The translations under genes were made by a program, and so were the position numbers. Shown here piece by piece: positions 2,470 to 64,000 of a DNA stretch of 64,000 nt. The notes below the pieces were generated by a model. It had not been told where the DNA came from. It made no database searches and worked only from the letters and a program-made list of their open reading frames with translations. Every line of letters starts with the position of its first letter. Positions within the stretch are counted from its first letter, which is position 1. This DNA is from Escherichia phage phiWec187: sequence record LC739536.1; one strand, 5' to 3'.

Positions 2470-2482
2470 ATTCCTCCTTAAG

Positions 2483-2500
2483 AAAGGGGGGACAAAGCCC
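2483..2500 (-). terminator. GC hairpin between nrdA and next gene (attenuator or terminator)
   Basis: Minus strand GGGGGCTTTGTCCCCC then TTTCTT, then AAGGAGG and ATG. Confidence 0.4.
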
Positions 2501-2510
2501 CCTAGTTTCA

Positions 2511-5458: not shown

Positions 5459-5509
5459 AAATTCTCCTTCTCTCTTTTAAGGAGAGCATAGCTCTCCTAA
5501 CGTTAGCCT

Positions 5510-5538
5510 ATACTACACGAATCTCAATTAAAAGTCAA
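5510..5538 (-). promoter_or_regulatory. sigma70-like promoter on minus strand
   Basis: Minus strand TTGACT-N17-TAGTAT, then 5' UTR hairpin and GAAGGAG RBS. Confidence 0.45.
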
Positions 5539-5555
5539 CTATAATTTTAAGTTGA

Positions 5556-6527: not shown

Positions 6528-6536
6528 TATTTCTCC

Positions 6537-9866: not shown

Positions 9867-10897
9867 TGTTCCTCCTGCTCTGAAATATATGCTTGTAGCA
9901 TACTTTCAAAAGTTGTTTCATCATTCGCCCAACGTTTCATATATACCAACTGAAAAATTGTCTCTATCCATTCATCAGTTGTCATTTCTACTTCTTCACC
10001 ATCCCAAGAAGTAAATTTAACGCCATCTGGGAACCATTCATAATACTGATCTTTAACTGTCTGAAAAAGTTCAGCCTGTGTTTTACATTTGGAAATAAGA
10101 TTAAAGCAAGTAATATCTCCAAACTTAACATCGAAATCTTGGTAAGGTCGAATACTATCTGTCTTATCGCCCATTAGCATTTGATAAGCTAACCAGTAAC
10201 TACCCCAACCCTTAATTTCTTTTTTCTTACCTTTTTCTACGATCCAGATATCACCGATAGATTCATCAATCAGAATAATACAAGGATTTTTATAAACACC
10301 ATCCTCTTTATAAAAGTTAAAGAGTAAACTTGGTGTGTGCAAGCTATCTTTGTCGATAGATGCTACAATATGAGAAAACTTACCAGTTTCCTTGTAGGCT
10401 TTATACCCTGCATATCCATAGATTTCTAAAGCATCGTCTGCCTCAATACCAGTAACAACGTCACCGTTATGTTTTTCAACTAGATAATCTTTAGTATCTG
10501 ATAAATGGATTGGTCTTAAATCTGATCGTTCTGATTTATATTCTTTTGGCATTTTGAAAGAATGCCGGAAGGTTTTTCCTACCCCGATGACACCGCAATA
10601 CTTTTGAAGTTTTAGGTGATCCATCATCTGGGTTATTTTTGTCTTTGCAGCTTGAAACGTAAAAGAAATATTATCTGGGACTATTTGAACATCTTTTATT
10701 TCAAAATCTTCTCTAGAGAACAACTTCTTACCAGCAGCTTCGCGTTGCGCGTTAAGTGCTCCTAACCATCCTCCAATATTTTTTGAAGATTTACCCCAAA
10801 AATCTGTTCTTGTTTCAAACTCTTTTACATTACCGGAAGCCTTGTGTACAGCGTGGATTTTTCTTTGTTCTAAAGCTGAAGACGCTTGGAACGCCAC
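9863..10897 (-). CDS. putative 5'-3' exonuclease / flap endonuclease
   Basis: GIEADDALEIYGYAGY and IVASIDKD match FEN-family signatures. Confidence 0.5.
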   Translation of the reverse strand: MAFQASSALEQRKIHAVHKASGNVKEFETRTDFWGKSSKNIGGWLGALNAQREAAGKKLFSREDFEIKDVQIVPDNISFTFQAAKTKITQMMDHLKLQKYCGVIGVGKTFRHSFKMPKEYKSERSDLRPIHLSDTKDYLVEKHNGDVVTGIEADDALEIYGYAGYKAYKETGKFSHIVASIDKDSLHTPSLLFNFYKEDGVYKNPCIILIDESIGDIWIVEKGKKKEIKGWGSYWLAYQMLMGDKTDSIRPYQDFDVKFGDITCFNLISKCKTQAELFQTVKDQYYEWFPDGVKFTSWDGEEVEMTTDEWIETIFQLVYMKRWANDETTFESMLQAYISEQEEH

Positions 10898-10989
10898 TTG
10901 ATCGTAGTCTATTGCAAGAATTGTGTTCTCGTCAACATATTTGTGCAGGTCTTCCGGTTGGATTAAAATGTAACCGCTAATATTACCTC

Positions 10990-11202
10990 CTATTCATCAT
11001 CTGAACTCTCTGTTGAGAATGTTCGTGTGTATGGACACTGACGACTTGCAGAAACCTCTATAACCTTGTCGTACATACCGTTAGAGTAAAAACAGTATTT
11101 TGTACTTCCAGAAACTTGTTCTCCAGAATTAATTAAAGTTATTTGACCAGCATAAGAATAAGAACTGATTACTAAAAGTAAACCGACAAGAAGTTTTTTC
11201 AT
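10990..11202 (-). CDS. small secreted protein
   Basis: N-terminal signal-peptide-like MKKLLVGLLLVISSYSYA; own promoter upstream. Confidence 0.45.
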   Translation of the reverse strand: MKKLLVGLLLVISSYSYAGQITLINSGEQVSGSTKYCFYSNGMYDKVIEVSASRQCPYTRTFSTESSDDE

Positions 11203-11244
11203 GGTGTGTCTCCTTAAAAGCCCACCTAACTAAGTAGGTAGGCA

Positions 11245-11273
11245 TATTAACACATATTAAATTAGTAAGTCAA
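11245..11273 (-). promoter_or_regulatory. sigma70-like promoter on minus strand
   Basis: Minus strand TTGACT-N17/18-TAATAT upstream of signal-peptide gene. Confidence 0.4.
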
Positions 11274-11276
11274 GTA

Positions 11277-12161
11277 TTATTTTTGAATAGTTGACTTAAT
11301 AAGGTCTTGCATAATACCACGGATTTCATTAAAGCACAGAAGAACAGATGCTTCAAAAGATCCTTCTTCATCGTTAAAGTATTTAGGGAATTTAATACCA
11401 CTCAACTTAAATTCTTTATCAACAATAAAGTTAACGAAACCGTCATATTCCAGGCCAATGGCAACAACGTGCTTACCATCTTCCATAAGTTCTACTGCAC
11501 GAGATTCATAAAGGGATTCTTTACTCCATACAACCACACCTTCCGAATCTTCAAGTTTAATATAATTACCAAGGGTCAGTCGTTCAGCCTCATGTTCTTC
11601 TAAGATGGTATCAAAACCTTTAATAATGGCTTCTTCGTGTACACTAAACGGCAGGACTGGGAAAGTACCCAACACCCCACGAAGAAACACAGCAATATCT
11701 TCACTAATTTTCTTAGTACCATTAAGAACGTAGGTAATACTGTTTTCAGTGTCTACAACAACATAGTTATAGAAATCATCTGCCTCTGTCTCTGGGAGCA
11801 GAGAAAACACGATATCAGCCTCAATTGCTTTTTTACTTTCTTTGTCCAGGAAGAATTCTTTAGTAGGGTTTGCAGCAATAAACTCTTGTTCCATCTCCTG
11901 GAGTTTTTCATTAAGAATGCGTTTAACTTTTTTCTTGTTAACTTTCTTAACAGATTGCCCTACTTTAATAACCTCTAAACCAGAGAACACTTTTACATAG
12001 GAACCATCATCTTCAAAACGAACAAGACCAATGGTATGTGCTTGTTGACCCTGTGCCACAACAAAATCCAGCGGTTTGTCTGTTACTGTGTTCAGTGCGG
12101 AAATAGACAGACCATCACCAGAAATCAGGGTTACGCAAGATTTGAAATTTTTAGCAAACAT
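11277..12161 (-). CDS. hypothetical protein
   Basis: 294-aa ORF; weak N-terminal resemblance MFAKNF to RdgC-type proteins, not relied on. Confidence 0.4.
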   Translation of the reverse strand: MFAKNFKSCVTLISGDGLSISALNTVTDKPLDFVVAQGQQAHTIGLVRFEDDGSYVKVFSGLEVIKVGQSVKKVNKKKVKRILNEKLQEMEQEFIAANPTKEFFLDKESKKAIEADIVFSLLPETEADDFYNYVVVDTENSITYVLNGTKKISEDIAVFLRGVLGTFPVLPFSVHEEAIIKGFDTILEEHEAERLTLGNYIKLEDSEGVVVWSKESLYESRAVELMEDGKHVVAIGLEYDGFVNFIVDKEFKLSGIKFPKYFNDEEGSFEASVLLCFNEIRGIMQDLIKSTIQK

Positions 12162-45880: not shown

Positions 45881-46346
45881 TTTAACTACAATCAAGGTGT
45901 CTGATCTACCTGTAACAACATCTGTTTCAGACACAGATTATTTTGTAACAGATCAATCAGGCATCACTAAGAAAACATCATTACGTGTTCTTCTTGCGGG
46001 TGCTGGTGTTACACGAAATCGTCTTTCTGCAAGGGGTACTGTTACAAACACCCTAGCTTTAGATATTAGCACGGCAGAGTATTTCTCTGCCACTTTATCT
46101 AGTCCAACTTGCAGTATTTCATTTAGTAATGTTCCAGTTACAACTAACATTGTTCAAAACTTTACGCTATCCCTACGTCAAGGCAGTGGAGCAAATAAAG
46201 TAACGTGGCCTCAATCTGTTAAATGGAGTTTTGGTCGCGCTCCTGTTTTGAGTTATAAACAGGGAGCTACAGATATTTTTGAATTTGTTAGTTATGATAA
46301 TGGAGCTACCTGGATAGGTAGTTTAGTGATGGCAGGAGTGATTTAA
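45873..46346 (+). CDS. hypothetical baseplate protein
   Basis: 157-aa ORF. Confidence 0.35.
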   Translation: MADLTTIKVSDLPVTTSVSDTDYFVTDQSGITKKTSLRVLLAGAGVTRNRLSARGTVTNTLALDISTAEYFSATLSSPTCSISFSNVPVTTNIVQNFTLSLRQGSGANKVTWPQSVKWSFGRAPVLSYKQGATDIFEFVSYDNGATWIGSLVMAGVI

Positions 46347-49222
46347 TGTCAAGAATTAAGCACAGAATTGACAATGTTTTTCAACTGATCGATGGACATA
46401 TTCAGTTCTTAGATCGTAATACAGGTTTAACTGTAGATCCTACAGTGCAACACTATGTATTAAACCCACAAAACGTTCTAGCTAATAACAGACACTTTAT
46501 AAACTGGACTGCTCAAGAAGGGCAACCAAACGGGGATGCTACAACAGAAGGTCAATCCGTGCTTATTCTTGGTTGCGCTTATGCATACCTAGCTTCCGGC
46601 GATACAAAGTATTTAGACTCTGCTAAAAAATATTGGCAAGCCTATATAGATTACTTCTTTGGTGGTCAACCTATCCCAGATCCGCCAGCAAAGTATCGCC
46701 CTAACTGGATTATTAACGGTAAAGAACCACGTCTTGCACATTATCCTCTTACAGATGATGGCTACCCTACACACGGAGGTTTTAAGGGTAGCTTAATGAC
46801 GTGGACTAACGGTAGAACAGTTATTCCTCATGGTGCTCCGCATTGGGGAGAATACCTTGACAAAGCATGGTTTGCTTTTAATGGTAATCTAGGATGGAAC
46901 TCTGTAAACGCTACAGTTTATGCTGTTAATGCAGATGGTACAACAGATTGGTCTAAGAAGGGAGATCAATGGGATGTTGATTGGATCATTGATCGTCTAG
47001 GACGTAAAGTTGATTGGGATGGAAATATCTTAGAAGAAGGTTTTCCAACATCTCAATACGGAACAGTTCAACTAAAAAATACTTCTGTAAATGGTACATA
47101 TAAATTTAACTATGCGACTTGTAACCCTGTTGAACACGGTGGTTATTTAATGGAGCGTAACACTATGTGGCATAACAGACCAGTTAACGTTCCGGTAGAA
47201 ATGGGCTTTCAGGATAATGCGTCAGATGCCGAAACTTGGTGGTGTGATGCTAATTACCTGATGTACCAAATTACAGGAGAAAGAAAATATTGGTTATGCT
47301 GGCAGTCTTCACTGTTAGTGTGTCAAGATTACTCAAACATTGATATGTTTGATAAATTCTTCCGTAAGTCTACATATGCAACTATTCCGTTTACAGATGG
47401 TATCTCTTACGATTATTCGTATCCATCTACAGCAATACCTAAATATTCAAGAGATACTTTAGGTTATATTGTTATTAGACAAGATGTTGCTGCTCAAACA
47501 ACATTAGAACAGCAATCCATTTGGTTTAAAGTTGATCAGAACTCTAAGTTACGAGTTCAGTTCCAAGGTGTAGATGACGCAGGACATGGTATCCTTTTCC
47601 GTCCAGAATTGAAGCTAAGTAATACCAAAGATGAAAATAACACAGTAACTTACCGTTGTGGCTTACCACTAGGTACAGCTAATATGACAAGCATGGATAT
47701 TCCATTATCCAGCTTTATGAGAAGTACCCCTCCAAATGGTGGAACATATATTATCGCAGATCCGCGAATTATTGTTGACTGGGGTGACAATACTGTGGTA
47801 CAATTTAAGTATGTAACAGGTATTACTGGAACTAATGATGACCAGATTGTTACTGCATCAATGGATACGGATGGTGGTGTCACTGTTGGTTTTTGGTTAA
47901 CCCCTACATCAAAAGCTAATGTTAAGTCTATCACATATAGAACATATGAAGATGACTTTAACATGACTATCACGGATGCTCAAGGTTGGAGATGGTGGGC
48001 TATGCTACCTAAAACGCAAGGAGCATGGAGTACGAAGACTTTATCAGCCTCTGATTTTAAGTTAAGTGCTTACCAGCCTAATCATCCAGAAACAGATCCT
48101 AAACCTTCAGCAATAAATCTTACTGCTGTAGATCAGGTAAATTTAGTTCTCGATACGGCTCCTGTCAATGGTTTAACAGGAACAATAGATTTCTATTGTA
48201 TTAACGATGTGCCTGAAAGATATTCGTCATCTTCTGGTGATGATTATACCATGTACTTCCGTATCACTGTACAGGCTTCAAGTCCTCATACTGCTAAGTT
48301 AGGTGATTGTACTATTATTGACTATAAGTTAAATAGTCTTAATTACACACCAGGAATAATTCCATTCTCTAATATCAGTGACCCAAACACTGCATTGTAT
48401 GATGGCTGGCGTGGTATTCCATACCCAGGATACCAATACCCTTCCTTATACTGTTTTGCAGGTAGAGATATTGATTGGACGCGTTTAAATAACAGTATCA
48501 ATTTCTTGTATGATTCTCAAATGTGGTTTTATAACACATTCGATCCTGTGATGCCTGGGCCTATGGCACAAGCGTATGTGTGGGATCGTTGGGATGCAAG
48601 AAAATACGGTGAACCAAATACGTTCACAATGAAACACTGGAATGAAAAAGCGTGGGATGGTTATGAAGCTCGTGCATTCTACTGTGCTTGTCATGCTGTA
48701 TACGAACTTGTACAAAGAGGAGAAACACCTCCTGAAAAACTAGTAACAGTTTGTAAAAATTGGATCAACTATCTTAAATGGTTCCAAGACAATAATGATG
48801 GAAGAACACCAACTATCTTTAACCCAGATGGTACAGTTCTTGCGCCTATAGATGACTTTACTAGTCATATGTCTGCACTGTTTATGGCGGGTTGTTCAAT
48901 CATGGGCTTGGCAGGTTATGATTCACAAATTCCAAACATTGGTATTGTAGCAGACAGATGTTTTGATCTGATTCAGCAAAACTATATTGTGCTTTCCCCT
49001 AACCATCCGATGAATGGTTCCTGGAGTGTTGCACCACGCCCAGATTCAGATAACGGAATGTTCTTTGGTTTCCATGCTGGAGAACTATTACGTGGTTTTG
49101 GTTTATATGCCTTGTATCGTAAACTAAACCCTCAAAACGCTTTACCAATTTTGGATAATAGTAACATACCAACACTAACTGTTCTAACTATGAATGATAT
49201 TAGTGTTGATGTAACCAAATAA
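46346..49222 (+). CDS. large structural protein, function unknown
   Basis: 958 aa inside baseplate/fibre module; Trp/Tyr-rich. Confidence 0.4.
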   Translation: MSRIKHRIDNVFQLIDGHIQFLDRNTGLTVDPTVQHYVLNPQNVLANNRHFINWTAQEGQPNGDATTEGQSVLILGCAYAYLASGDTKYLDSAKKYWQAYIDYFFGGQPIPDPPAKYRPNWIINGKEPRLAHYPLTDDGYPTHGGFKGSLMTWTNGRTVIPHGAPHWGEYLDKAWFAFNGNLGWNSVNATVYAVNADGTTDWSKKGDQWDVDWIIDRLGRKVDWDGNILEEGFPTSQYGTVQLKNTSVNGTYKFNYATCNPVEHGGYLMERNTMWHNRPVNVPVEMGFQDNASDAETWWCDANYLMYQITGERKYWLCWQSSLLVCQDYSNIDMFDKFFRKSTYATIPFTDGISYDYSYPSTAIPKYSRDTLGYIVIRQDVAAQTTLEQQSIWFKVDQNSKLRVQFQGVDDAGHGILFRPELKLSNTKDENNTVTYRCGLPLGTANMTSMDIPLSSFMRSTPPNGGTYIIADPRIIVDWGDNTVVQFKYVTGITGTNDDQIVTASMDTDGGVTVGFWLTPTSKANVKSITYRTYEDDFNMTITDAQGWRWWAMLPKTQGAWSTKTLSASDFKLSAYQPNHPETDPKPSAINLTAVDQVNLVLDTAPVNGLTGTIDFYCINDVPERYSSSSGDDYTMYFRITVQASSPHTAKLGDCTIIDYKLNSLNYTPGIIPFSNISDPNTALYDGWRGIPYPGYQYPSLYCFAGRDIDWTRLNNSINFLYDSQMWFYNTFDPVMPGPMAQAYVWDRWDARKYGEPNTFTMKHWNEKAWDGYEARAFYCACHAVYELVQRGETPPEKLVTVCKNWINYLKWFQDNNDGRTPTIFNPDGTVLAPIDDFTSHMSALFMAGCSIMGLAGYDSQIPNIGIVADRCFDLIQQNYIVLSPNHPMNGSWSVAPRPDSDNGMFFGFHAGELLRGFGLYALYRKLNPQNALPILDNSNIPTLTVLTMNDISVDVTK

Positions 49223-49230
49223 GGAAAATA

Positions 49231-51306
49231 ATGAAACAGGCTATTTTTACTGTAACTCGAAATACGAGAGTAAATGCCAGTTCATTCAGCTATAAGACCG
49301 TCGATGGAACGGCGGTCGCTGGTAGAGATTATGTAGCTAAACAGGGAACAGTAACGTTCCCTTCTGATGCAGATTCTGCTACTGTAGTGGTTGATGTATA
49401 TGAACGCCCGGCAAACTCTTTAGATCTTTATTTTACTCTTGAGATTACTAGCATAAGTCAAAATAACATGATGATCAATGAAGAAATTCGTTGTGTTATT
49501 ACGACTAATCAATCGAATACAACCCCGCTAACTTGGCCTGTTGTGAAGTCTAGAATGTTTGATCCTAAGTTTTGGACAATAGATTCTCAAGCAACAGAAA
49601 GTTGTTCTATTATCTCTAATGGTGATTCTTTCACAGCAAGAATGGTTAATAGGACAGTGGCTGGTCTTGCTGGGATTATTTGGTCAACTTACGATAAATA
49701 TGATCACAAAGGATTAGGCTACCAAGAACATTCTGATTTAAGTAAAGAAAAACTTTGGTTTAAAATGGAACTTAGTCAAGGTGTTCCTGGATTAAAAGAA
49801 GAAAAATTAATGCCATCCTTAACAGTGACACTGAAGGATGAAACAGTTCATTATATATCTCTAAACTTTTATGCAGAAGAAGTTTCAGAGGACGGTAAAA
49901 CAGCAATAATCAAATTAGATTTCTCAAATTTAAAATCTGGGCCAGAAAATGATATTGTTGTTGACACTACACAGATAGATAACATGTTCTTCTCCTTGAT
50001 TTCCGCAAGGTATCAAGAAATTGAAGATGTTATACCAGTAGACAATATAGATCTTTCCTTTAAGTTTACCATACTAGAGCCTGATACTGGTTACAGTATG
50101 ATGAATATGGGTAATTTAAATGTTCCGGCGCACACCATAAGAATGTGTACATCTTATGATGATATGTATAACCTAACCCCAGAGCGAGTTATTTCTAACA
50201 CCTATAGATTAGGTTATAGAGATATGATTAACCATTATAATGGTATGTCACACTATTATCAATTTAGTTGGGATGCTGGATCTAATAAATGGGCTTTGAA
50301 CAGAACAGAATATTTAAACCCAGCAACAGAGGCCTGGTTTGATAATTTCCACGCTAATGCAAAAGCTATGGGCTACACAGTAATGAACTCCTTAAGTTTT
50401 GAAATTATGAGTACAGTGTGTCCTGTAGAATGGGTACAACATACTTGGAATGATGATCTGGCTGCTACAGGTTATGAGCCACCAAGTTATGTTTTATCTC
50501 CTTCAATTGATGAAGGGATGAATTATTTACAAGGTGTAATAAATAAGATAGCTTCTATATCCGCTGCTAATGATCTTCCGGTTATTATTCAGGTTGGTGA
50601 ACCGTGGTGGTGGTATAACACAGCTACCAATCTCCCGTGTATTTATGATTATGCAACCAAAGTTGCATTTAATAATGAAACTGGATTATATGCACAAGAT
50701 GTTGGTACAGTTAAGAATTATAAAACTGGTACACCATATGATGAATATTATGCATTCTTATCTAAAACATTAGGACTGCGTGTTGCTAAATTTGCAACAG
50801 ATACTAGATTAGCATATCCTGGAGCAAAAGTTACATTGTTACCATTTGTACCATCCATCTTAGGTAACGGTATGATGGAATTTGTTAACTTCCCTAAAGA
50901 TTATTATATCCCAGAAAACTTTGACTTTTATTGTTCAGAATGTTATGACTGGTTGTTGGAAGGTCAGATGGAAAGATCTTTCGATGCTATCACAATACCT
51001 AATGAACAATTAGGTTTTAGTTATGATAAGATACATTATCTTGCAGGGTTTGTTCCAGATGCAACTCTAGCACCATTATATGGCTTTGATCCTGAATCAG
51101 ACTACAGAACATATTTGTGGAAAATGATTATAGGTAATATTGTATTGAATGACCAGAGGTTTGTTGGTTTGTATCAATACATATGGGCTTATCCACAAAT
51201 TATGGCAGATTCATTAACTGTTCTTAATTCAAAATCCCAAGTTTTTTATATGGGTAACGTACCTCTGAATGTCTTTTTACAAGATACAGTATATGTTTCT
51301 TCTTAA
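49231..51306 (+). CDS. large structural protein, function unknown
   Basis: 691-aa ORF following the 958-aa gene. Confidence 0.4.
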   Translation: MKQAIFTVTRNTRVNASSFSYKTVDGTAVAGRDYVAKQGTVTFPSDADSATVVVDVYERPANSLDLYFTLEITSISQNNMMINEEIRCVITTNQSNTTPLTWPVVKSRMFDPKFWTIDSQATESCSIISNGDSFTARMVNRTVAGLAGIIWSTYDKYDHKGLGYQEHSDLSKEKLWFKMELSQGVPGLKEEKLMPSLTVTLKDETVHYISLNFYAEEVSEDGKTAIIKLDFSNLKSGPENDIVVDTTQIDNMFFSLISARYQEIEDVIPVDNIDLSFKFTILEPDTGYSMMNMGNLNVPAHTIRMCTSYDDMYNLTPERVISNTYRLGYRDMINHYNGMSHYYQFSWDAGSNKWALNRTEYLNPATEAWFDNFHANAKAMGYTVMNSLSFEIMSTVCPVEWVQHTWNDDLAATGYEPPSYVLSPSIDEGMNYLQGVINKIASISAANDLPVIIQVGEPWWWYNTATNLPCIYDYATKVAFNNETGLYAQDVGTVKNYKTGTPYDEYYAFLSKTLGLRVAKFATDTRLAYPGAKVTLLPFVPSILGNGMMEFVNFPKDYYIPENFDFYCSECYDWLLEGQMERSFDAITIPNEQLGFSYDKIHYLAGFVPDATLAPLYGFDPESDYRTYLWKMIIGNIVLNDQRFVGLYQYIWAYPQIMADSLTVLNSKSQVFYMGNVPLNVFLQDTVYVSS

Positions 51307-55249: not shown

Positions 55250-55591
55250 ATGGAGCTAACAGAAGTATGGGATATCGCTAAAGAGGCGATTATCCCTCTT
55301 ATTGGCGTAATCTGGGTGGTCTTCAAACAGAAGATAGATGATATGGCAAGTGATTTGGATAAAATGGAAGACAAATACCGCGAACTAGAAAAGAAGTTGG
55401 TGTTTGTTGAATCCACTTATGCTACCAAAGCAGAACTTGCTCAAATGCTTAACCAGATCAACTCTACATTAATGGCAAATAATACTGCCTTAGAACAGAA
55501 GATTGAAAAAATAATGGATTTAAAAAATGCTCCTGTTCAATTAATGCTAGAGGAGATTACAAAGCGCACACAAAGTAAGGACAAAAATTAA
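55250..55591 (+). CDS. hypothetical membrane-anchored coiled-coil protein
   Basis: 113 aa; N-terminal hydrophobic segment then coiled-coil. Confidence 0.35.
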   Translation: MELTEVWDIAKEAIIPLIGVIWVVFKQKIDDMASDLDKMEDKYRELEKKLVFVESTYATKAELAQMLNQINSTLMANNTALEQKIEKIMDLKNAPVQLMLEEITKRTQSKDKN

Positions 55592-58005
55592 TGGCGAATT
55601 TTCCAACATATCCTGCTACGACACTAGAACAAGGTGTTGATCTGGTTATATTCTCGTCTAACCAGATGCATGATGTTATTAATGGGGATGCTACAGCAAC
55701 TGTAGAAACCGAAACAGGTTTAATACCTACACTGCGTAAAGCACTTGTTGATAACTTCTTCTTTAAGAGTCCTGTTGCTTGGTCAGCAGGATCAACTGAA
55801 ACTGTATTTAACCAGTTACGTTATTTTGAAAACGGTATCTTGAGTGGGTACTATTATGCCCCATCTGCCACTACTGCGAACCCTGTACCTATGCAGGGCA
55901 CACCTGTAGGGGACAGTAACTGGACTCTGTACGCTCTTAAAACTGAACAGTTAGCTTCAGATGTGTATCCTTGGTATTTTAAAGGTGCTACAGGATATGA
56001 AACAGAAATCAGTCCTCCTTATATCTTTGATAATGCTATTGTCACCATTAACGGTGTAATTCAGATTCAAGGTGAAGCATTTACTATCAAAGATAGTAAA
56101 ATTATTCTGGCAGAACCATTAGGTTTAGATCCGTCTACTGGTCTACCTAACAAATTGTTTGCTTTTATTGGTAAAACAACAGCTTCTACTTCTTACGTAG
56201 AGAAAAACCTTTTGTCATCTACTACTGGTGCAGCAATGGTTGGTCTTCCATCTGGAGGCAACCTGTTACAAGCTCAATACTTTGTAACGCCTGAGCAGTT
56301 TGGTGCAATTGGTGATGGAGTTACCGATGATACTCAAGCAATTTTAAAAACTATCACTTTCGCTAACACGAATAACATTCAAGTACGTGCAGATAAGAAT
56401 TATAGATTCACAAGCTCAATTGCTATGTCTGGTATTCGTTGGTATGGTGGTACATTCACTGGTAACGGTGGAACAATGATTTCTACTGTGTCCTGTTGGA
56501 TGGAAAACGTTCGCTTTGAAAAATGTTATGTTAAGATGTTAGGTGGTGATTGCCGATTCTATCGTAATATCTTCTCCAACGCAACATCTACAGCAGCATT
56601 CTTAATGCAAGCAATGACAAGTGAAGGTACGTTGGACTTCAGTTACAACGAAATGTATGGTTGTAAATATGCGATCCTGCAACAAGGTACTGGAGAAGTA
56701 ATGACCTACGGGCGTTACTCTAACAACTATATTCACGATATCAAAGGTGATGCTATTGAACTTAACGTAGTTCAAAAACACTACACTGAAGGTTTGATTA
56801 TCGAGAATAACCACATTGCTAACGTAGATGCTTCTGGACAAGGTGCAAACTGGGGTATTGGTATTGGTGTAGCAGGTAGTGGCCCATATGGTGTTGATGT
56901 TCCTGATTCACAATATGTACGTAATTTCAGTATCGTTGGGAATAGGGTTTACAATTGCCGTCAATGTTTACACGTTGAAATGGGTAAAAACTTCACAATA
57001 CGTGATAATGAAGTTTATCCTAACACAGCAGTTTCAACAGGTACAGGTTTAACTACTTGTGGTGTTGCATTATACGGATGCCAAGATTTTGAAGTTGATG
57101 GTTTAACTGGTTATCTGCTCAATGATCCGTCTGTTTCAACACGTATGGTCTTTATTGACTGGGGTGTTAACAGTGGAAGATATGCGGGGCCACCAATTAA
57201 CTTTACAATTAAGAATTTGGATATTCCAGAATCTTCAATTGAGATTGCAACATCTGGATCAGATGCCTGGGAAAACTCTACAATTGTTAGTAATATCAAT
57301 TGTAATATTTTTAAATGGCGTGGGCTACCATCTAGCTCTACCTTTAATAATATTCGTTGCCGTAGTATTGACTTTATTGGTCAACACGGAAGCGGAGAAG
57401 GAAGTGGTGGCGGTTTCTATACTCGCAGCCAATTCACGTATATGAAGTGGGTAGGATGTACAGCACTTAGCGGAGATGAAACAACAGTTTCTTTTGCTAA
57501 AATCTACACTGATCGTTGCGATCAGGTTGGAAATAACTTTGGTGTTCCAACTGCTGTTGATGGTACAGGTCATCGTGGGCCAGTTTTAACTACTATTTCT
57601 GAACAATATTTTACAGCTTATGATGAATTCCCAGGTGGGCGTGAATTCCCTACTGGAACAGTTATTCATTGTGCAAGCGGTAAAAAACATGTTGTTACAG
57701 TAGGTGGTGCTTTCTTTAGTGACAACGAGAAAATAAAAGCAACTGTTACAGGTCAAACCTATCTACAGTCTAATGCTTTAAACTGGGCTAGTAATGGCTA
57801 CGCTAAAGCAGCAGGTACTAAGATTGTTATTCCAGGTGCAGGTGCAAATGGCGGCGATCTTGTGACAACTATAGCACGTGCTACATATGTGACAAATAGT
57901 TTGTACACAATAGATATTGCAGATCCAATTGTAACACCTACAGCAGAGAATACACAAATTAAAGCTCTGAATCCTGTTACTTTTGTTACTGTCAATAATG
58001 CTTAA
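55591..58005 (+). CDS. tailspike with pectate-lyase-like beta-helix domain
   Basis: FGAIGDGVTDDTQAILKTI is the signature of right-handed beta-helix glycanases in tailspikes. Confidence 0.55.
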   Translation: MANFPTYPATTLEQGVDLVIFSSNQMHDVINGDATATVETETGLIPTLRKALVDNFFFKSPVAWSAGSTETVFNQLRYFENGILSGYYYAPSATTANPVPMQGTPVGDSNWTLYALKTEQLASDVYPWYFKGATGYETEISPPYIFDNAIVTINGVIQIQGEAFTIKDSKIILAEPLGLDPSTGLPNKLFAFIGKTTASTSYVEKNLLSSTTGAAMVGLPSGGNLLQAQYFVTPEQFGAIGDGVTDDTQAILKTITFANTNNIQVRADKNYRFTSSIAMSGIRWYGGTFTGNGGTMISTVSCWMENVRFEKCYVKMLGGDCRFYRNIFSNATSTAAFLMQAMTSEGTLDFSYNEMYGCKYAILQQGTGEVMTYGRYSNNYIHDIKGDAIELNVVQKHYTEGLIIENNHIANVDASGQGANWGIGIGVAGSGPYGVDVPDSQYVRNFSIVGNRVYNCRQCLHVEMGKNFTIRDNEVYPNTAVSTGTGLTTCGVALYGCQDFEVDGLTGYLLNDPSVSTRMVFIDWGVNSGRYAGPPINFTIKNLDIPESSIEIATSGSDAWENSTIVSNINCNIFKWRGLPSSSTFNNIRCRSIDFIGQHGSGEGSGGGFYTRSQFTYMKWVGCTALSGDETTVSFAKIYTDRCDQVGNNFGVPTAVDGTGHRGPVLTTISEQYFTAYDEFPGGREFPTGTVIHCASGKKHVVTVGGAFFSDNEKIKATVTGQTYLQSNALNWASNGYAKAAGTKIVIPGAGANGGDLVTTIARATYVTNSLYTIDIADPIVTPTAENTQIKALNPVTFVTVNNA

Positions 58006-58046: not shown

Positions 58047-60008
58047 GTGATTTTAACACGTCCAAATAGTGCCATTGCAGACATGGTAGAGTCTCGCTAT
58101 AGAAAGCGTAGAAGTTTTGCAAGTGGTTTTACCTTAAGAGATGCTCGTGAAGCATTGCTCTTTGAAACTGACGGTAACTACTATCAGTGGAAAGGTTCTC
58201 TACCTAAAGTTGTACCTGCTAACTCTACTCCTACATCTACTGGAGGGATTTCAGATACAGCTTGGAAAAATGTGGGTAATGCAGATGACATTGCTCAAAT
58301 AGAATCAGAATTAGATGCTATTGAAGCTGAAATTGAAGATCTTAGAGAATCCATTCCAGAGGCTGGTAAATCAGCTTACCAGATTGCCGTAGACAATGGT
58401 TTCCAAGGTACTGAGACAGAGTGGTTGGCTTCTTTAAAAGGTGATCCAGGTGCTCCATTAAAGCTACTAGGGACGCTATCTAATACCAACCAATTACCTA
58501 CAACTGGAAACAATGCAGGGGATGCATGGATTGTAGGCGAGAATATGTATGCTTGGGATGGTACTGCTTGGAGAAAAGTAAACTCACAGGGGCCAGAAGG
58601 TAAATCTGCTTATGAAGTATGGCTTGCAGCAGGAAACGAAGGTACAGAACTAGATTATCTTGCCGCAATTAAAGGTGATAAAGGGGAGCCTGGCCCAGAG
58701 GGGCCACAAGGTGTGCCAGGTAATAATGCTAATGGTTTTGATTACCAAGGCGCAGCTAATTCCGTTTCAGATCTTCCTTCTGCATCTCCTGGAAACACAT
58801 CTCAAGCATGGAGTATTGGTACATATCTATACGTGTCAAACGGTGTAGAATGGATCAATATGGGCGCTATAGTGGGGCCAAAAGGAGATAAAGGCGACAA
58901 AGGAGATAAGGGTAACACTGGTGATTCAGCTTATCAAGTCTGGTTAAATGCTGGTAACGTTGGTACTATTGACGAATATATTGCCTCTCTGAAAGGAGAA
59001 AAAGGTGATAAGGGAGACAAGGGTGATCAAGGTGAACAGGGTATACAAGGCTTGACGGGGCCAACTGGTGCAGGGTTGACCATTATTGACATTCTGACTA
59101 GCACTTCTGAACTACCACAAACTGGAGAAGATGGCGATGGTTATCTGATCAATAATGAACTTTGGGTCTGGTTGCAAGGAGCCACAGAGTGGACAAATGT
59201 TGGTCGTTTAGCTGGTACTCCAATCACTGCAAAAGGACACGTTGCGTCTGCAAGTGCACTTCCTCCTACAGCCAATTACGGTGATGCTTATCTGACGGAA
59301 GATACAGGTCATCTTTACATTTACACCTATGATGAACAAACTCAAACTGCTGAATATGTAGATATGGGTAGTTTGAAAGGTGATAAGGGTGAAAAAGGTG
59401 ACGCTGGTACTAACGGTACAGACGGTGCAACTTGGATTGTTAAAACAACAGATCCAATCTCTAGTGATGGTAAACAAGGTGATTATGCCTTTAATATCTC
59501 CACTGGCGAGGTGTTCTTAAAAACATCTGCAACTATCTGGACTTCTCAAGGTACACTACCTAGTATCACAGATGCACCTAGTGATGGTAAGACTTATGCT
59601 CGTAAAGATGGAGCATGGGAAGAACTCACTAATTCTGTAGATGGTCAAGATATAGTTCCAACAAAAGTAACAACTAATTTTATAGAGGTTACAGCATATA
59701 CTAACAATTCTGTTACAGGGGACTGGACACCTCCAGGAACACATAACATGAATGTGTTGAATCTTACTGGTAACTCTACTATAAAAGCATGGCCTGGTGT
59801 CGAAGATAGCACAAAACCTAAACCATTCTCTGCAATAGTTTATCTTATCCAAGATGCCACTGGAGGTCGTACTGTTACTTTAGATCCATCTTACAAAGTA
59901 ATTGGTTCCAGTGATATTAATACAGATCCTAACGGAGTAACAATACTACAACTAACATATTGTGGTGTTGGCGATTACGTGGATGCTATTGTTGCTAAAC
60001 GCACATAA
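58047..60008 (+). CDS. tail fibre with collagen-like and fibre-repeat modules
   Basis: Gly-X-Y runs (GDKGDKGDKGNTG, GEKGDKGDKGDQGEQG) alternate with three repeats of a GKSAYQ...WL...LKGD module. Confidence 0.55.
   Translation: MILTRPNSAIADMVESRYRKRRSFASGFTLRDAREALLFETDGNYYQWKGSLPKVVPANSTPTSTGGISDTAWKNVGNADDIAQIESELDAIEAEIEDLRESIPEAGKSAYQIAVDNGFQGTETEWLASLKGDPGAPLKLLGTLSNTNQLPTTGNNAGDAWIVGENMYAWDGTAWRKVNSQGPEGKSAYEVWLAAGNEGTELDYLAAIKGDKGEPGPEGPQGVPGNNANGFDYQGAANSVSDLPSASPGNTSQAWSIGTYLYVSNGVEWINMGAIVGPKGDKGDKGDKGNTGDSAYQVWLNAGNVGTIDEYIASLKGEKGDKGDKGDQGEQGIQGLTGPTGAGLTIIDILTSTSELPQTGEDGDGYLINNELWVWLQGATEWTNVGRLAGTPITAKGHVASASALPPTANYGDAYLTEDTGHLYIYTYDEQTQTAEYVDMGSLKGDKGEKGDAGTNGTDGATWIVKTTDPISSDGKQGDYAFNISTGEVFLKTSATIWTSQGTLPSITDAPSDGKTYARKDGAWEELTNSVDGQDIVPTKVTTNFIEVTAYTNNSVTGDWTPPGTHNMNVLNLTGNSTIKAWPGVEDSTKPKPFSAIVYLIQDATGGRTVTLDPSYKVIGSSDINTDPNGVTILQLTYCGVGDYVDAIVAKRT
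58880..59420 (+). repeat. collagen-like Gly-X-Y coding repeats
   Basis: Reiterated AAAGG(A/T)GA(T/A)AAGGG units at about 58881, 58990 and 59377. Confidence 0.5.
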
Positions 60009-60009
60009 T

Positions 60010-60035
60010 CAAAGCCCCTTCTGGGGCTTATTATT
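60010..60035 (+). terminator. hairpin terminator after collagen-like fibre gene
   Basis: AGCCCC-TTCT-GGGGCT then TATTATTT. Confidence 0.45.
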
Positions 60036-60047
60036 TAAGGAGATTAA

Positions 60048-62867
60048 ATGTATCCTATTCCTTTATTTATGTCAACAACATCAGCTTCAGTAGTAACAGC
60101 TACATCTATAACTACTTCCTCTATTGGTATTGCAATAGTTGGTGGTAAAAAACAACTGACATACACAGTTACACCGGAAGATGGTGCATTATTTGATATA
60201 GCTTTTTCATCTTCAGATAATACCAAAATGGTTATAGATAATAGTGGTATGATGGAGTTTGTTGCCGAAGGTGGTTTTGATGCAATAATGACAGCTAAAA
60301 ATAATTTAGGTGCTGTCTTAACTGATCAATCTGGTGGTTATGCTTCAGAATTAAGTGTGTACACTGAAAGTCTATCGGCTATGGATGTAGGCACTACTCA
60401 ACAGTTGGTTGCTACAATCAGTCCAGAAGGTGCTAAAGACCTTCCAGATATGGTAATTACATACACCACAACAGATCCAGAAGTAGCTACTGTAAGCCCT
60501 ACAGGGTTAATAACTGCTCTTAAAGATGGCGGTTGCCGTATAGGTTGTACTGCAACGTATCAAGGAACAGTTGTGGCCTCTGATAGGTCTTATTTAGGTG
60601 TTAATGCTATTCCTGTTATTTCTAATGTAACAGCCGTGGCAAACAGTTATGGAGACGTTCGTGTTGCTTGGGATGTAACTGATCCGCTAGACGGTGATAC
60701 TTATACTGTAGAAGTATTAGATTTAAGTAATAATAGTGTTCAGTGGACTACAACAACCACGAATACTTACGCTTACTTTGATATCTCTGACTCTATTCCT
60801 CTTTATGGGTTTGCTCCAACATACCTTAAAATTAGCGTTAAGAGCACCAAAGCAGCAGCCGTTATCTTTAATAACTCAATAGCTACAGATGATTCGTTCA
60901 TTAAAGAAGTTATTGTCTTTGCTGGACAAGATAACGTAAATGCACACTTTACAGAACTATCTGGTGCAAATAAAGCAGCAATGAGTAGCACAACAGCCCG
61001 TAATGCATATGCCACGCAACGTGGTTTAGCAAATGCTGAAGTTCTTCCGTTAAATACAGCTTCTGGATCATCAGCAGCAGATAAATATGCAGATGATAAA
61101 GCCGGAACAGGAACACCAGACAACTACTGGTATGATCTGGATAACACAGCAGATGGGCCATGCTTAACTAACTTTATCACTAAAGTCACACCTTATGCAA
61201 GTAAGGTTAAAGCCATTATTTGGGGACAAGGTGAAAATGATGCTGTATCAGCATCTTCGACTGTTGCAGGTAGGTACAGTAACACTACACGTTACCATGA
61301 TGCTACGATAGCCATCTTTGATAAGATGCGTACAATAGTTCCTGCTTCTCAAGCAAAAATTGTTTGGCAGATCCTAGGACGTTCTTATTTATATGGTGTA
61401 GAAGTTAATGGTGTGGATTGGCAGAAGTACAGAAATGTACAAAGAACCATCTCTACAGCACGTGATGATGTTATCATTGGTTCTTGGGTAGATGGTGCTG
61501 AACGTTACAGTGGTTATGTTTATGAAGAAGGTATTGATGGTCGTATCCATTATATTTCTTCTGTATACCAAACAGCAGCTACAAAACTTGCTAAATCAGC
61601 AGCAGACGGTACAGACTTAACATCAACGTCACCTGTTTGGGTTGATATGGCTGTTCCAACTGGAGCAACAGCTACTTCCCAATCTAATCAAGATACAATT
61701 TTAGCATGGGATGCTCAAGGCTATAGTAAACACTACTTCCGTAATATTAACGTCTTAACCGCATCTGTATTAACTGAACAAACGCTTAATACGAACAGTT
61801 ATACGTTTACCTATGCAGATCAAGTAGCACAATATGGCTTTGCAGCAGGAACTACTATATTTGATGTTGCATATTATGACGAAGCAAATGATGTGTTATC
61901 TCCTTTAGTACGTTTTAATGTTAACGTTACAGCAGGAACCGTAGAAGATAAACCTGTAGTGATGGATTATGATTTAACACAAGAAACTCTTCCATCAGAT
62001 GTTAAGGTTAATGGTGGGAACTCTTTTGCTCGTACTTCTGGAGATACACTTGTAGCCACTAACACCTTGGTTGCTCCGTTGGAGTATATTGGTACTACCC
62101 CTGTAGGTAGACGTGTAACAGCTAACACAGCTACACAAATTTTTGTCAACAACGCCTTAACAAGTGCAAGCCCGTGGGTAAAGACCAACTTAACTGTTGC
62201 AGCTTCATCTGATAACTCTCCGGTTGGAACTACTGCTAATGTATTCAAATTAACTCCGACTACAACCTCTGGTAGTCATATCTTAACTGCAACATATACT
62301 AACGCGTACAACATATCTGCCGGACGTAACTGGTCTGCCTCTGTTTTCTTGAAAGCGAACGGGATTACTAAGGCCAAACTAAGATTAAAAGCAGGAACTG
62401 AAGTTAATGAGGGTACTTTTGATTTAGCAGCAGGTACATTCACAGGAAGTGAAGCTAATATTATATCTATGGGCAACGGTTGGTATCGTGCTATTCTGCA
62501 TAAAACAGGGATAGCCAAACAGTCCTCCATAAGTTTTGAAATAATTGCCTTGGATGCAACTGGTGCGGAGATTTTCGCTGGAGATGGTACTAGTAACCTT
62601 GCAGTTTGGTTGCCACAGCTTGAAGGTGCTTCTACAGGAGAAACATCAAAAGCTGGATCGCCTTATGTCTGCACATATCCTGGAAATTTAGGAGGAGTAT
62701 CCTTCACTATACCAAGGAACGGACATACTGGTGTGGATGTTTACTATTCCAACGGAGACGTTGTTCGTGACGTATTCTCTGGTACGGCATCTACTTGGAC
62801 AATAAACTACTCCAGCTTGTACGATTGGGGATCAGTCTTTATTACAGGTTTGAAATATTACGACTAA
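60048..62867 (+). CDS. tail fibre / receptor-binding protein with Ig-like domains
   Basis: 939 aa; two Big_2-like segments in N-terminal third; Thr/Ser-rich; terminator downstream. Confidence 0.5.
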   Translation: MYPIPLFMSTTSASVVTATSITTSSIGIAIVGGKKQLTYTVTPEDGALFDIAFSSSDNTKMVIDNSGMMEFVAEGGFDAIMTAKNNLGAVLTDQSGGYASELSVYTESLSAMDVGTTQQLVATISPEGAKDLPDMVITYTTTDPEVATVSPTGLITALKDGGCRIGCTATYQGTVVASDRSYLGVNAIPVISNVTAVANSYGDVRVAWDVTDPLDGDTYTVEVLDLSNNSVQWTTTTTNTYAYFDISDSIPLYGFAPTYLKISVKSTKAAAVIFNNSIATDDSFIKEVIVFAGQDNVNAHFTELSGANKAAMSSTTARNAYATQRGLANAEVLPLNTASGSSAADKYADDKAGTGTPDNYWYDLDNTADGPCLTNFITKVTPYASKVKAIIWGQGENDAVSASSTVAGRYSNTTRYHDATIAIFDKMRTIVPASQAKIVWQILGRSYLYGVEVNGVDWQKYRNVQRTISTARDDVIIGSWVDGAERYSGYVYEEGIDGRIHYISSVYQTAATKLAKSAADGTDLTSTSPVWVDMAVPTGATATSQSNQDTILAWDAQGYSKHYFRNINVLTASVLTEQTLNTNSYTFTYADQVAQYGFAAGTTIFDVAYYDEANDVLSPLVRFNVNVTAGTVEDKPVVMDYDLTQETLPSDVKVNGGNSFARTSGDTLVATNTLVAPLEYIGTTPVGRRVTANTATQIFVNNALTSASPWVKTNLTVAASSDNSPVGTTANVFKLTPTTTSGSHILTATYTNAYNISAGRNWSASVFLKANGITKAKLRLKAGTEVNEGTFDLAAGTFTGSEANIISMGNGWYRAILHKTGIAKQSSISFEIIALDATGAEIFAGDGTSNLAVWLPQLEGASTGETSKAGSPYVCTYPGNLGGVSFTIPRNGHTGVDVYYSNGDVVRDVFSGTASTWTINYSSLYDWGSVFITGLKYYD

Positions 62868-62869
62868 TA

Positions 62870-62900
62870 AAAAAGGAGCCATTAGGCTCCTTTTCTTTTA
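62870..62900 (+). terminator. bidirectional terminator between convergent genes
   Basis: GGAGCC-ATTA-GGCTCC flanked by A-run and TTTTCTTTT. Confidence 0.55.
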
Positions 62901-62902
62901 TC

Positions 62903-63334
62903 TTAATCAGTGAAAATTACGCTCACATCTTCTTTAGAGAAGAGTTTATGATCTTCACCTTTTGTCTCAAGAGTTTCATACAGGTTAAGAAGTTCTGAAA
63001 CATCTTTCTCTACCAGTTTCTTCAATGTTGCAATTTTCTGTTTGCGATTCTTAATACGTTCAGCTACAACCTTACGTTGGTATCCGGCAGTACGATAACC
63101 TGAGAAAGTTACACCAGTAAGACTTGCAGTTACAGGATCGTAGTGACGTTCAATCTGAAATTTATTAAAAGGTACAGCGTCATCACGAATAATCTTACCG
63201 CCATTACTTACTTGACGAAGACCAGTAACTTGCTCAAGTCGTGCCATAGAAATCTTTGGAGACAGACCAGAATCCAGGTTCATACCGTTGTTAATCAGTG
63301 CTTTCAGGGTGATTTTGCTGTTCAGTGTACTCAT
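62903..63334 (-). CDS. hypothetical protein
   Basis: 143 aa; GGAGGA RBS 8 nt before ATG at 63334. Confidence 0.45.
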   Translation of the reverse strand: MSTLNSKITLKALINNGMNLDSGLSPKISMARLEQVTGLRQVSNGGKIIRDDAVPFNKFQIERHYDPVTASLTGVTFSGYRTAGYQRKVVAERIKNRKQKIATLKKLVEKDVSELLNLYETLETKGEDHKLFSKEDVSVIFTD

Positions 63335-64000
63335 TTAGTCGTTCCTCCGCTTGCTTAAAAATATTTACATCGGCTTCACAGCCTAAGTATTCTCTACCTG
63401 TTAAAAGTGCCGCAACTTGTGTTGTTGCACTTCCAGAGAAGAAGTCTAAGACTACATCTCCTTCGTTGGTGTGTATATTAATAAGGTCACAAAACAAAGT
63501 CAAGTGTTTTTGTGTTGGATGAAAACGATCTGCTCCTTGATAGATAGGATACTCGAACACACCCTTATGGTAGGAAGCATTGAAGGTTGGCTTCGAACCT
63601 TTAACACAAACAATAGCCATCTCTTTAGCGTTACTAAGGTAGTTAACACCACTGTTGATGGGTACAGGGTTTGTTTTAATCCATTCAATAGTACGGAACA
63701 TACGAAAACCAAGCGGTTCAAGGATTTCACGTAGCTCCTGGATCTTCCAGATATCATACCAAACTATACAAGTACCACCTTTTCTAAGCACCCTGTAGGC
63801 TTCTTTGAATACTTCTTTAAAGTAAGGAATATCTACAACATCCCAATCACCAAAGTTGTAAGATACACGGAATCTATCCGTATCTTTTCCAGTCGGCTCT
63901 CCAGATTGAAAATTTGTGTCACGAGAAATAGCATATGGTGGGTCAGTAAGAATCAAATCTACACTATTGCTTTCGAGGGTTTGCAGGTAGTTTAACGCGG
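63291..64000 (-). CDS. DNA amino-methyltransferase (DPPY motif), 5' end beyond window
   Basis: Motif IV DPPY near N-terminus and motif I LDFFSGSATT; frame stays open upstream of the track start to position 64000. Confidence 0.75.
   Translation of the reverse strand, partial: ALNYLQTLESNSVDLILTDPPYAISRDTNFQSGEPTGKDTDRFRVSYNFGDWDVVDIPYFKEVFKEAYRVLRKGGTCIVWYDIWKIQELREILEPLGFRMFRTIEWIKTNPVPINSGVNYLSNAKEMAIVCVKGSKPTFNASYHKGVFEYPIYQGADRFHPTQKHLTLFCDLINIHTNEGDVVLDFFSGSATTQVAALLTGREYLGCEADVNIFKQAEERLNEYTEQQNHPESTD

Follow-up and report, generated by a model that had tools for sequence, protein, structure and literature searches.

SGNH-fold domains are known from the fibres and tailspikes of several phages, among them G7C gp63.1, Possum, Moo19/B2, the Vi06 fibre and Klebsiella prophage receptor-binding enzymes, where they stand beside receptor-binding proteins and have been described as deacetylating. 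The SASA/CE6 enzymes of the same fold (PF03629; NanS, 3PT5; At4g34215, 2APJ; CAC0529, 1ZMB) are soluble catabolic proteins with a Ser nucleophile. In SASA enzymes the block I Gln that adjoins this Ser lies in an inverted oxyanion hole, the (H)QGE motif of block III holds Gln, and substitution of conserved block I or block III residues kills activity (PMC9487903). A further point of comparison is gp65 of phage N4 (9lc0, 9yf4, 9yf5, 9yft), the building block of the tail sheath, which touches gp64 and gp53 and for which binding to NfrA has been described (PMC13434306). Here we analyse a protein of 939 amino acids (aa) encoded in a stretch of 64,000 nucleotides (nt) of Escherichia phage phiWec187 (LC739536.1; hereafter the window). 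Its complete open reading frame (ORF) occupies 60048..62867 on the plus strand, from an ATG at 60048 to a TAA at 62865-62867. The middle domain has a predicted SASA-type SGNH fold in which the pocket is kept and the nucleophilic Ser is replaced by Asp295, and we propose that it serves recognition of a surface glycan.

An earlier, sequence-only reading, which had delimited this ORF exactly, described an Ig-like-domain fibre that might bind glycans and also deacetylate them. It pointed to two Big_2-like segments (TYTVTPEDGALFDIAFSSSDNTKM, aa 38-61, and ITYTTTDPEVATVSPTGLITALKDGG, aa 137-162) and to the string IIWGQGENDA (aa 390-399), said to recall the QGE block of SASA-type acetylesterases; all three strings are present in the translated ORF. 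Judged from the query sequence alone, the QGE resemblance is not significant, because Pfam SASA (PF03629) scores 14.3 bits on the whole protein and 16.9 bits on the domain, below the gathering threshold of 24.8 bits. It is the family that makes the resemblance solid. An exhaustive HMMER search with aa 275-545 returned 77 cluster representatives, 14 of them below 1e-30. Among 23 aligned members of the SGNH family, 15 match Pfam SASA at E <= 0.01 (best E 1.4e-13), and distant members scanned in full exceed the SASA threshold with 32-51 bits. Single-sequence word-index searches with the SGNH domain or the C-terminal module had given only 2-3 matches and were superseded by these exhaustive HMMER and profile queries.

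The structural predictions agree with the family matches. AlphaFold2 (AF2) models were built separately for aa 275-545, on the family alignment, and for aa 531-939. The first is of high confidence (pLDDT 93.8, pTM 0.91) and has the alternating β/α topology of the SGNH superfamily, a flavodoxin-like three-layer α/β/α fold with a central parallel sheet. In a Foldseek search of the PDB, the top matches are to the N4 gp65 tail sheath (9yf5, 9lc0; E 4e-12, TM 0.74-0.76), followed by about 65 SGNH/GDSL proteins (68 matches in all at E <= 1e-3), and every one of the top 50 is N4 gp65 or an SGNH/GDSL protein. The SGNH matches include CE2 esterases, SASA-type 1ZMB, PatB, the CE20 enzyme XAC1771, TesA and acetyl-xylan esterases. 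Among the predicted viral structures of BFVD, many matches are phage fibres or spikes whose annotation reads SGNH, hydrolase or esterase (Possum, PPWS4, Vi06, Sf12). The known phage SGNH fibres are only remote structural relatives of the query, with TM 0.40-0.58 and 11-14% identity. These findings, obtained by AF2, Foldseek and profile comparison, place a SASA-type SGNH-fold domain at aa ~280-530 (60885..61637, plus strand).

SASA features were taken as defined in PMC9487903, and residue equivalence was established here from alignments and secondary-structure position. The motif set of the query is GQDN / ASGSSA / GQGEND / IH. The string singled out by the sequence-only reading indeed contains block III, G393-Q-G-E-N-D398 (61224..61241), with the (H)QGE hallmark of SASA enzymes at Q394-G395-E396; the block I Gln is likewise present as Q294. 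Block II, A338-S-G340-S-S-A (61059..61076), retains the oxyanion-hole Gly as G340 in a column whose family consensus is AxGxSAAD. At the catalytic-base position of block V, His501 (61548..61550) is retained and corresponds to the invariant column H227 of the family alignment, occupied by His in 53 of 60 homologues.

What decides the interpretation of the SGNH domain is a string which that reading did not mention, VFAGQDNVNAH (aa 288-298). It holds block I, G293-Q-D295-N-V (60924..60938), where the nucleophilic Ser that follows β1 in the enzymes is replaced by Asp295 (codon GAT, 60930-60932). Three lines of evidence make Asp295 the equivalent of that Ser. In a MAFFT alignment, 50 of the 60 homologues have Ser in the Asp295 column. 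The Ser column of the family profile falls on residue 112 in the GQxNM motif of Fl8CE20_II, the position of that enzyme's catalytic Ser112 (PMC12313940). Lastly, Asp295 is position 21 of the AF2 model, where it opens helix H21-27 after strand E13-19, the canonical nucleophile site. Block V also departs from the canonical DxxH, with Gly498 at H-3 and Asp497 at H-4. Gly at H-3 is shared by 21 of the 60 homologues, most of which still have Ser, and is thus a subfamily trait; since NanS and the CE2 enzymes function as dyads, the block V Asp is not strictly required, and its loss is tolerated in the family, as NanS and these 21 homologues illustrate. Loss of the Ser is not known to be tolerated by any SGNH enzyme. 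The sequence-only reading had staked its esterase suggestion on an SGNH fold and a Ser-His-Asp triad. The fold is present in the AF2 model and in the Foldseek comparisons; the triad is incomplete, with Asp295 at the Ser position (GQDN) and Gly498 at the canonical block V Asp position, and the proposed deacetylation is not supported.

Comparison with the motifs compiled in PMC10792757 sets this replacement in context. The four blocks read GQSNM, SGGTAI, YQGESD and D-x-L-H in 2APJ; GQSNM, EGGSSI, HQGESD and D-x-I-H in 1ZMB; and GQSNA, RGGSAF, MQGEFD and R-x-S-H in NanS (3PT5), which uses a main-chain oxygen as the acid and, like the query, has no block V Asp. In the query they read G293-Q-D-N-V, A338-S-G-S-S-A, G393-Q-G-E-N-D and D497-G-R-I-H501. 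The SASA/CE6 enzymes and the query thus have in common the SGNH fold, the Gln of block I, the Gly of block II, the (H)QGE of block III and the His of block V. They differ in that the query has Asp295 for the Ser nucleophile, a sub-threshold Pfam score and a place in a tail-fibre-locus protein. Neither the structural census PMC10792757 nor the review PMC9487903 contains an SGNH-fold enzyme with an Asp nucleophile. The only Asp-bearing SGNH-fold protein in the census is the OSK domain of Oskar (5A4A; GDDFM, VSGLTI, NIGSVD and no block V His), which is non-enzymatic and has been repurposed as an RNA binder (PMC10792757, PMC9487903). OSK resembles the query in its fold and in the Asp at the nucleophile position, but lacks in addition the His and most of the active-site contacts, all retained by the query, and the link between the two is at the superfamily level only. 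The CE2 entries 2wao and 2w9x, going by their PDB titles, exemplify non-catalytic carbohydrate binding in an SGNH active site. A literature search, which was not exhaustive, found no earlier case of a phage fibre whose SGNH domain is catalytically dead.

Judged from its distribution, the Asp appears to be neither noise nor a sign of decay. Codon 295 is two substitutions away from any Ser codon, and Asp295, QGEND and His501 are identical in all eight Justusliebigvirus genomes compared, a set that includes long and short forms as well as forms with another tip. Asp (GGDN) is likewise found, together with the His, in the 48% identical protein of Avunavirus Av-05. The nearest Ser-bearing relatives (P0007, P0008 and P0017) are 48-50% identical and indicate that Ser was the ancestral state of the column. 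Within the alignment of 60, Ser, G-E and His occur together in 47 homologues and Ser is absent from 10; six of these ten also have no His, and their residues at the Ser site are assorted (A, M, V, L, T). Only the query lineage and its Av-05 sister combine Asp with intact G-E and His. Between the window and phage EmilieFrey, the SGNH domain shows a single amino-acid change in 251 codons (aa 280-530), which corresponds to a dN/dS of 0.027 from few substitutions and makes it the most constrained domain of the protein; the other N-terminal domains have dN/dS values of 0.14-0.38. These comparisons point to an SGNH domain that is functional and constrained, but not by a canonical acyl-enzyme mechanism.

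The closest SGNH-domain relatives (38-51% identical) all lie in proteins that carry NCTSP_N and TIM-barrel_NCTSP domains, that is, in N4 gp65-type sheaths. The family profile matches N4 gp65 (9lc0_I) with E 1.3e-86 in two tandem copies, reaching the start of the next domain. Copy 1 (residues 434-602) has kept its Ser (GESQ) and has GQGDQD at block III, and the match stops before the His; in copy 2 (residues 717-1002) Ser, QGE block and His are all gone. Of these sites, the query is altered at the Ser alone. The paper that describes the N4 structure (PMC13434306) does not mention an esterase-like fold for gp65. In both proteins the SGNH-like domain is followed by a β-sandwich domain of the same type. 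N4 gp65, however, has its NCTSP_N (PF23844) and TIM-barrel (PF23845) domains in the same chain, whereas a Pfam scan found neither family in the 939-aa ORF, and phiWec187 carries them in a separate ORF at 49231..51306. The query further differs in belonging to a contractile-tailed phage and in having Big_2 domains and a tip like a carbohydrate-binding module (CBM), both of which N4 gp65 does not have.

The remaining parts of the 939-aa protein give it a modular layout. An N-terminal peptide, MYPIPLFMSTTSASV (60048..60092), is conserved with phAPEC8_00180, where it reads MFPIPIFTIMTSTGV, and is presumed to be a virion-attachment anchor. It is followed at aa ~16-191 (60093..60620) by two Ig-like domains of the Big_2 family (PF02368), which are 62% identical to aa 411-587 of the phAPEC8 protein. 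The Big_2-like segments of the sequence-only reading are borne out here by Pfam, which recognises two stretches with E 3.8e-11 and 43.2 bits on the whole protein, and E 6.2e-15 and 55.3 bits on aa 1-191, above the gathering threshold of 22.8 bits. The SGNH domain is flanked by two predicted β-sandwich spacers. Spacer A (aa ~192-279; 60621..60884) matches no Pfam family and is predicted from its weak homology to spacer B (29% identity over 69 aa, E 4e-4). Spacer B (aa ~531-635; 61638..61952) is built of β strands in the AF2 model, at low confidence. The two spacers form the start and the end of a cassette, and the short forms of 628 aa described below stop at the end of spacer B.

Several syntenic variants trace the borders of this cassette. 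The phAPEC8_00180 protein (phAPEC8 locus 1746-4421) has the same N-terminal peptide, an RCC1-like propeller and the two Big_2 domains, followed directly by the C-terminal module (63% identical), with no SGNH cassette between them. Its RCC1-like β-propeller, at aa ~40-331, has no counterpart in the window protein. In the metagenomic proteins P0080 and P0081 the two Big_2 domains are likewise fused directly to the C-terminal module. Phages muut, PD114, KKP_3264 and AMO3598 encode a clean short form that ends after spacer B and has no C-terminal module. Phage phi92 (NC_023693, locus 5405-7067) has a short form with a frame-breaking deletion of 218 nt, annotated as genes 152 and 153 and missing the C-terminal third, and in ALITA (locus 9001-11820) codon 720 is a premature stop. 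At least 25 genomes carry an intact ORF, and in 35 of 60 records the match covers less than 80% of the gene, which suggests that the short form is common; four of these records were checked directly. From the syntenic variants and the mutual weak homology of the flanking spacers, residues ~192-635 appear to be an insertable unit of β-sandwich, SGNH domain and β-sandwich, and the locus is a hot spot at which domain cassettes are exchanged.

The C-terminal exchangeable module (aa ~636-939; 61953..62864) has a jelly-roll, CBM-like domain of the type found in head-spike fibres of gene transfer agents (GTAs). It passes the NCBIfam model NF048003 (phage head spike fiber) with 68.1 bits over aa 694-863, where the curated cut-off is 36 bits and relatives score 72-167 bits (phAPEC8 74, Sf11 gp17 88, Rhodobacter proteins 167). 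The carriers of this family are diverse, from a GTA head spike and the distal tail protein of Sf11 to the baseplate-locus fibre considered here. The head-spike fibre of RcGTA binds capsular polysaccharide in fluorescence assays (PMC10218006). A profile search with the module returned 95 homologues, several of them with Laminin_G_3 or CBM_4_9 domains. In the AF2 model of aa 531-939, the core at aa ~700-870 is all β with pLDDT 86-97, and its Foldseek matches comprise baseplate or fibre proteins of Pa193 and E217, CBM22, the sugar-binding protein BT_4411, the lectin Nictaba and a porphyran CBM. By analogy with these proteins, the module is probably a polysaccharide-binding tip, and the glycan binding proposed by the sequence-only reading is plausible through this part of the protein. 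Between Justusliebigvirus clades, 111 of 303 residues of the module differ and dS is saturated, with the remaining gene near-identical; such a pattern points to allelic exchange, as is typical of a host-specificity determinant. The Klebsiella phage ZCKP1 carries a tip of the window type, 94% identical.

The module also matches chain C of PDB entry 9OCC (E 6e-20), the distal tail protein (Dit) gp17 of Shigella phage Sf11 (locus 1012-2385). We rejected this entry as a structural or functional anchor, because only residues 3-165 of gp17 are modelled and its homologous C-terminal part is a large extra appendage whose function is not assigned (PMC12724387); no mechanism can therefore be transferred from it. 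The appendage itself, with its score on NF048003, may by the same analogy have a glycan-binding role.

We hypothesize that the 939-aa protein is a modular accessory adsorption protein, with a short anchor, two Big_2 domains, a three-domain cassette and a C-terminal jelly-roll that can be swapped. The Ig-like and β-sandwich domains would act as spacers, and the cassette has a common origin with 'non-contractile tail sheath' proteins of the N4 gp65 type. Its SASA pocket is kept (Gln294, Gly340, Gln394-Gly-Glu396 and His501) with Asp295 in place of the nucleophilic Ser, a change that would preclude the acyl-enzyme intermediate on which every characterised SGNH esterase relies. By analogy, the SGNH pocket may then be that of a former deacetylase which now serves as a non-hydrolysing recognition site for a surface glycan, plausibly an O-acetylated one, and the CBM-like module would make a second, host-specific polysaccharide contact. 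Acting together, the two modules would permit reversible adsorption and a broader host range with no deacetylation of the receptor. We favour this combination of a pseudo-esterase recognition module and a C-terminal glycan contact as the best explanation of the whole, with moderate confidence. In this proposal, glycan binding by either module, the presence of the protein in the virion and its identity as a 'fibre', which follows from gene position, are all inferred. Canonical deacetylation is unlikely given the residues at the active site, and the protein would accordingly be expected to have no esterase activity. Precedents for a non-catalytic function may be seen in OSK and in copy 2 of N4 gp65, which is degenerate and yet forms part of a working receptor-binding protein.

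Several points weigh against this proposal. Glycan binding by the SGNH pocket is argued by analogy, and an intact oxyanion hole with a His under strong purifying selection would also be expected of a non-canonical catalytic site. The dN/dS of 0.027 stems from one non-synonymous substitution (pS 0.06). In N4, the ligand attributed to the homologous protein is itself a protein, NfrA. With an overall pLDDT of 62, the AF2 model of aa 531-939 is reliable in its core only, and the extreme tip is of low confidence. Finally, the phi92 frameshift and the ALITA stop are natural truncations, which show that laboratory hosts can be infected without the intact protein.

The alternative that survives best holds that the SGNH domain has no pocket function and is a rigid structural or protein-protein module, serving as a spacer or as a surface on which other virion proteins or a proteinaceous receptor dock, and that only the C-terminal module contacts glycans. 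Such a role would be in keeping with the closest structural and sequence relatives, the domains of N4 gp65, which are degenerate at their catalytic motifs and belong to a sheath-building protein in contact with gp64 and gp53, to which NfrA binding is ascribed (PMC13434306). It would also be in keeping with nearest homologues that are all NCTSP-type sheath proteins, and with a constraint that spans the whole domain beyond the pocket, as fits an interface. However, it leaves unexplained why Q294, QGE and H501 are intact here when they have decayed in N4 gp65 copy 2 and in six of the ten other Ser-less homologues. Moreover, the SGNH domain is the sole non-Ig module of the 628-aa short forms, and so is probably their functional payload. 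We regard this alternative as doubtful, if deserving of serious consideration.

A second alternative is that the domain is an active esterase, hydrolase or transferase, in which Asp295 is a non-canonical nucleophile or Asp and His activate water, and that the fibre both binds and deacetylates its glycan. The retention of all other SASA elements (Q294, G340, Q394-G-E396 and H501) and the strongest constraint in the protein would be explained by activity, as would the persistence of Asp in two lineages that are 48% identical, given that other Ser-less homologues vary at this site and have mostly lost the His. Active SGNH tail fibres are frequent in phages (BFVD matches above; PMC9569702, PMC11654681), and the fold tolerates unusual triads, with dyads in CE2 enzymes and NanS and a water-mediated triad in CE20 enzymes (PMC12313940). 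Nonetheless, PMC10792757 and PMC9487903 offer no Asp-nucleophile SGNH enzyme, OSK is non-catalytic, block I and block III substitutions abolish SASA activity (PMC9487903), and the query by itself falls under the Pfam SASA threshold. The name "tail carbohydrate esterase" given to this gene in phages ALITA and KMB37 puts the esterase idea into public annotation already, but as an automated label, not an experimental result. We judge an active enzyme to be quite unlikely. Least probable by far is that the gene no longer has a function and is a dispensable remnant in decay, as the broken phi92 copy, the ALITA stop and the partial matches in about 35 of 60 related genomes might suggest, because at least 25 genomes have an intact ORF, dN/dS lies well under 1 in all domains (0.03-0.38), several independent isolates have a clean 628-aa short ORF, and the gene begins with a strong ribosome-binding site (RBS) and ends with a terminator.

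The genome setting is that of a fibre locus. The gene is 97.4-98.8% identical at the nt level, over its full length, to genes of phages inny, ALITA, alia, PaulScherrer, Paula, PHB05 and others, which belong to the genus Justusliebigvirus (Stephanstirmvirinae), phi92-like myophages of E. coli. The late tail-fibre operon ends with this gene. Its 5' neighbours include a short tail fibre and its chaperone, a colanidase tailspike of the phi92 gp150 type (55591..58005, in the same operon) and, directly upstream, a gp151-like fibre with Tail_spike_N, collagen repeats and Fibritin_C (58047..60008). Unlike the gp151-like neighbour, the 939-aa ORF has no trimerisation domains (coiled coil, β-helix or intramolecular chaperone) and no defined virion-attachment domain in the Pfam scan. 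The bead-like Ig/SGNH/CBM layout, together with the use of one tip domain per monomer in the Sf11 Dit, suggests by analogy that the protein may be a monomer. Database names for the gene conflict and include hypothetical protein, tail protein, putative tail component protein and glycosidase, besides the "non-contractile tail sheath" of KKE7M and the esterase label discussed above.

A Shine-Dalgarno sequence, AAGGAG (60037..60042), lies 5 nt 5' of the ATG, and the same RBS is annotated in phi92. Between the gp151-like fibre gene and the 939-aa ORF, a pattern match identified a hairpin (AAGCCCCTTCTGGGGCTT; 60012..60029) whose T-run is weak and which may act as an attenuator or an RNA-stability element. 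Directly after the stop codon, a G+C-rich 10-bp hairpin with a T-run (AAAAGGAGCC-ATTA-GGCTCCTTTT; 62871..62904, plus strand) resembles an intrinsic terminator and separates the gene from convergent minus-strand genes; a terminator at this place is annotated in records LR865361 and OX090893. Promoter-like sites around the gene occur only at background frequency (11 found against 9.3 expected). The convergent genes are a conserved hypothetical protein of the phi92 gp154 type (62903-63334, minus strand) and a Dam-like N6-adenine methyltransferase (63291-63956, minus strand), which overlap by ~44 nt. Farther away, the baseplate/fibre cluster includes a 958-aa 'tail protein' (46346-49222, plus strand; phrog_2871) with no Pfam domain and no sequence match to a solved structure. 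The GC skew of the window is negative over 1-20 kb and positive beyond, and this flip at ~20 kb coincides with the switch from minus- to plus-strand genes, the boundary between the early/replication and structural modules.

Two published designations were considered for the 939-aa ORF and rejected. It cannot be the unassigned 'fiber II' of phi92 (PMC13450770), because fiber II is seen on phi92 virions although the phi92 copy of the gene has a broken frame and is truncated. As the phi92 copy is broken, the phi92 cryo-EM papers never considered the 939-aa protein. Nor is it the 'glycan deacetylase tail fibre' to which NGR dependence is attributed in Maffei 2021 and Sellner 2021. That protein is a homologue of N4 Gp64, encoded in phiWec187 by a 691-aa ORF at 49231..51306 (plus strand), ~9 kb from the 939-aa gene, with a Calx-β domain followed by NCTSP_N and TIM-barrel_NCTSP. 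This ORF matches N4 Gp64 (9lc0_M) at E 3e-28 and also the N-terminal part of N4 gp65. The single-chain NCTSP layout of NCTSP_N, TIM barrel and SGNH domain is therefore divided between two genes in the window.

N4 and the phi92-like phages both depend on NGR glycan on K-12. The phages of the rV5 type (Vequintavirus) are also reported to be NGR-dependent and gave no match in the search with the SGNH domain, which shows that this domain is not needed for NGR use. Four records labelled as Campylobacter jejuni phages encode an SGNH domain 97.8% identical to that of the E. coli Justusliebigvirus protein; those listed are MG065639 (phage A150) and MG065689 (A110a), both of 146,366 bp. The Campylobacter host label of these records is probably an artefact or a contamination. 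A bolder interpretation holds that Asp295 marks a change of chemistry or purpose instead of a loss, in a pocket whose oxyanion hole and His have stayed complete under strong purifying selection in two phage genera. The domain would then be either a dedicated 'frozen-substrate' lectin for O-acetyl-glycans or the first SGNH-fold enzyme to attack a bacterial surface glycan by means of a carboxylate nucleophile or base. The same interpretation makes the gp65-type cassette a mobile unit of receptor recognition that has passed between N4-like podophage sheaths and phi92-like myophage fibres, which share NGR dependence. We think this full combination unlikely.

SGNH domains in phage fibres were known before, and an esterase label for this gene stood in two GenBank records. 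What is new is the conserved and selected replacement of Ser by Asp in an otherwise intact SASA pocket, the recognition of the SGNH domain as a gp65-type cassette, and a map of the gene's long, short and broken forms and of the tips that can be swapped among them. The name "tail carbohydrate esterase" probably overstates the role of the SGNH domain, and the transfer of enzyme names to phage fibres on the basis of fold calls for a test of the catalytic residues. For the study of the protein family, the domain offers a conserved natural Ser-to-Asp SGNH variant. These findings should be useful mainly to specialists in phage receptor-binding proteins, and would amount to a mechanistic surprise only if the Asp proves catalytic.

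For the biology of these phages, the occurrence of both halves of the N4 sheath, the TIM barrel of gp64/gp65 and the SGNH-like domain of gp65, as separate genes in phi92-like myophages provides a concrete case of the exchange of domain cassettes between podophages and myophages among their adsorption devices. The long, short and broken forms with their swappable tips make the protein a candidate determinant of host range between near-identical phages and a scaffold for tip swapping, and phages with the long and the short form constitute a natural experiment on host range.

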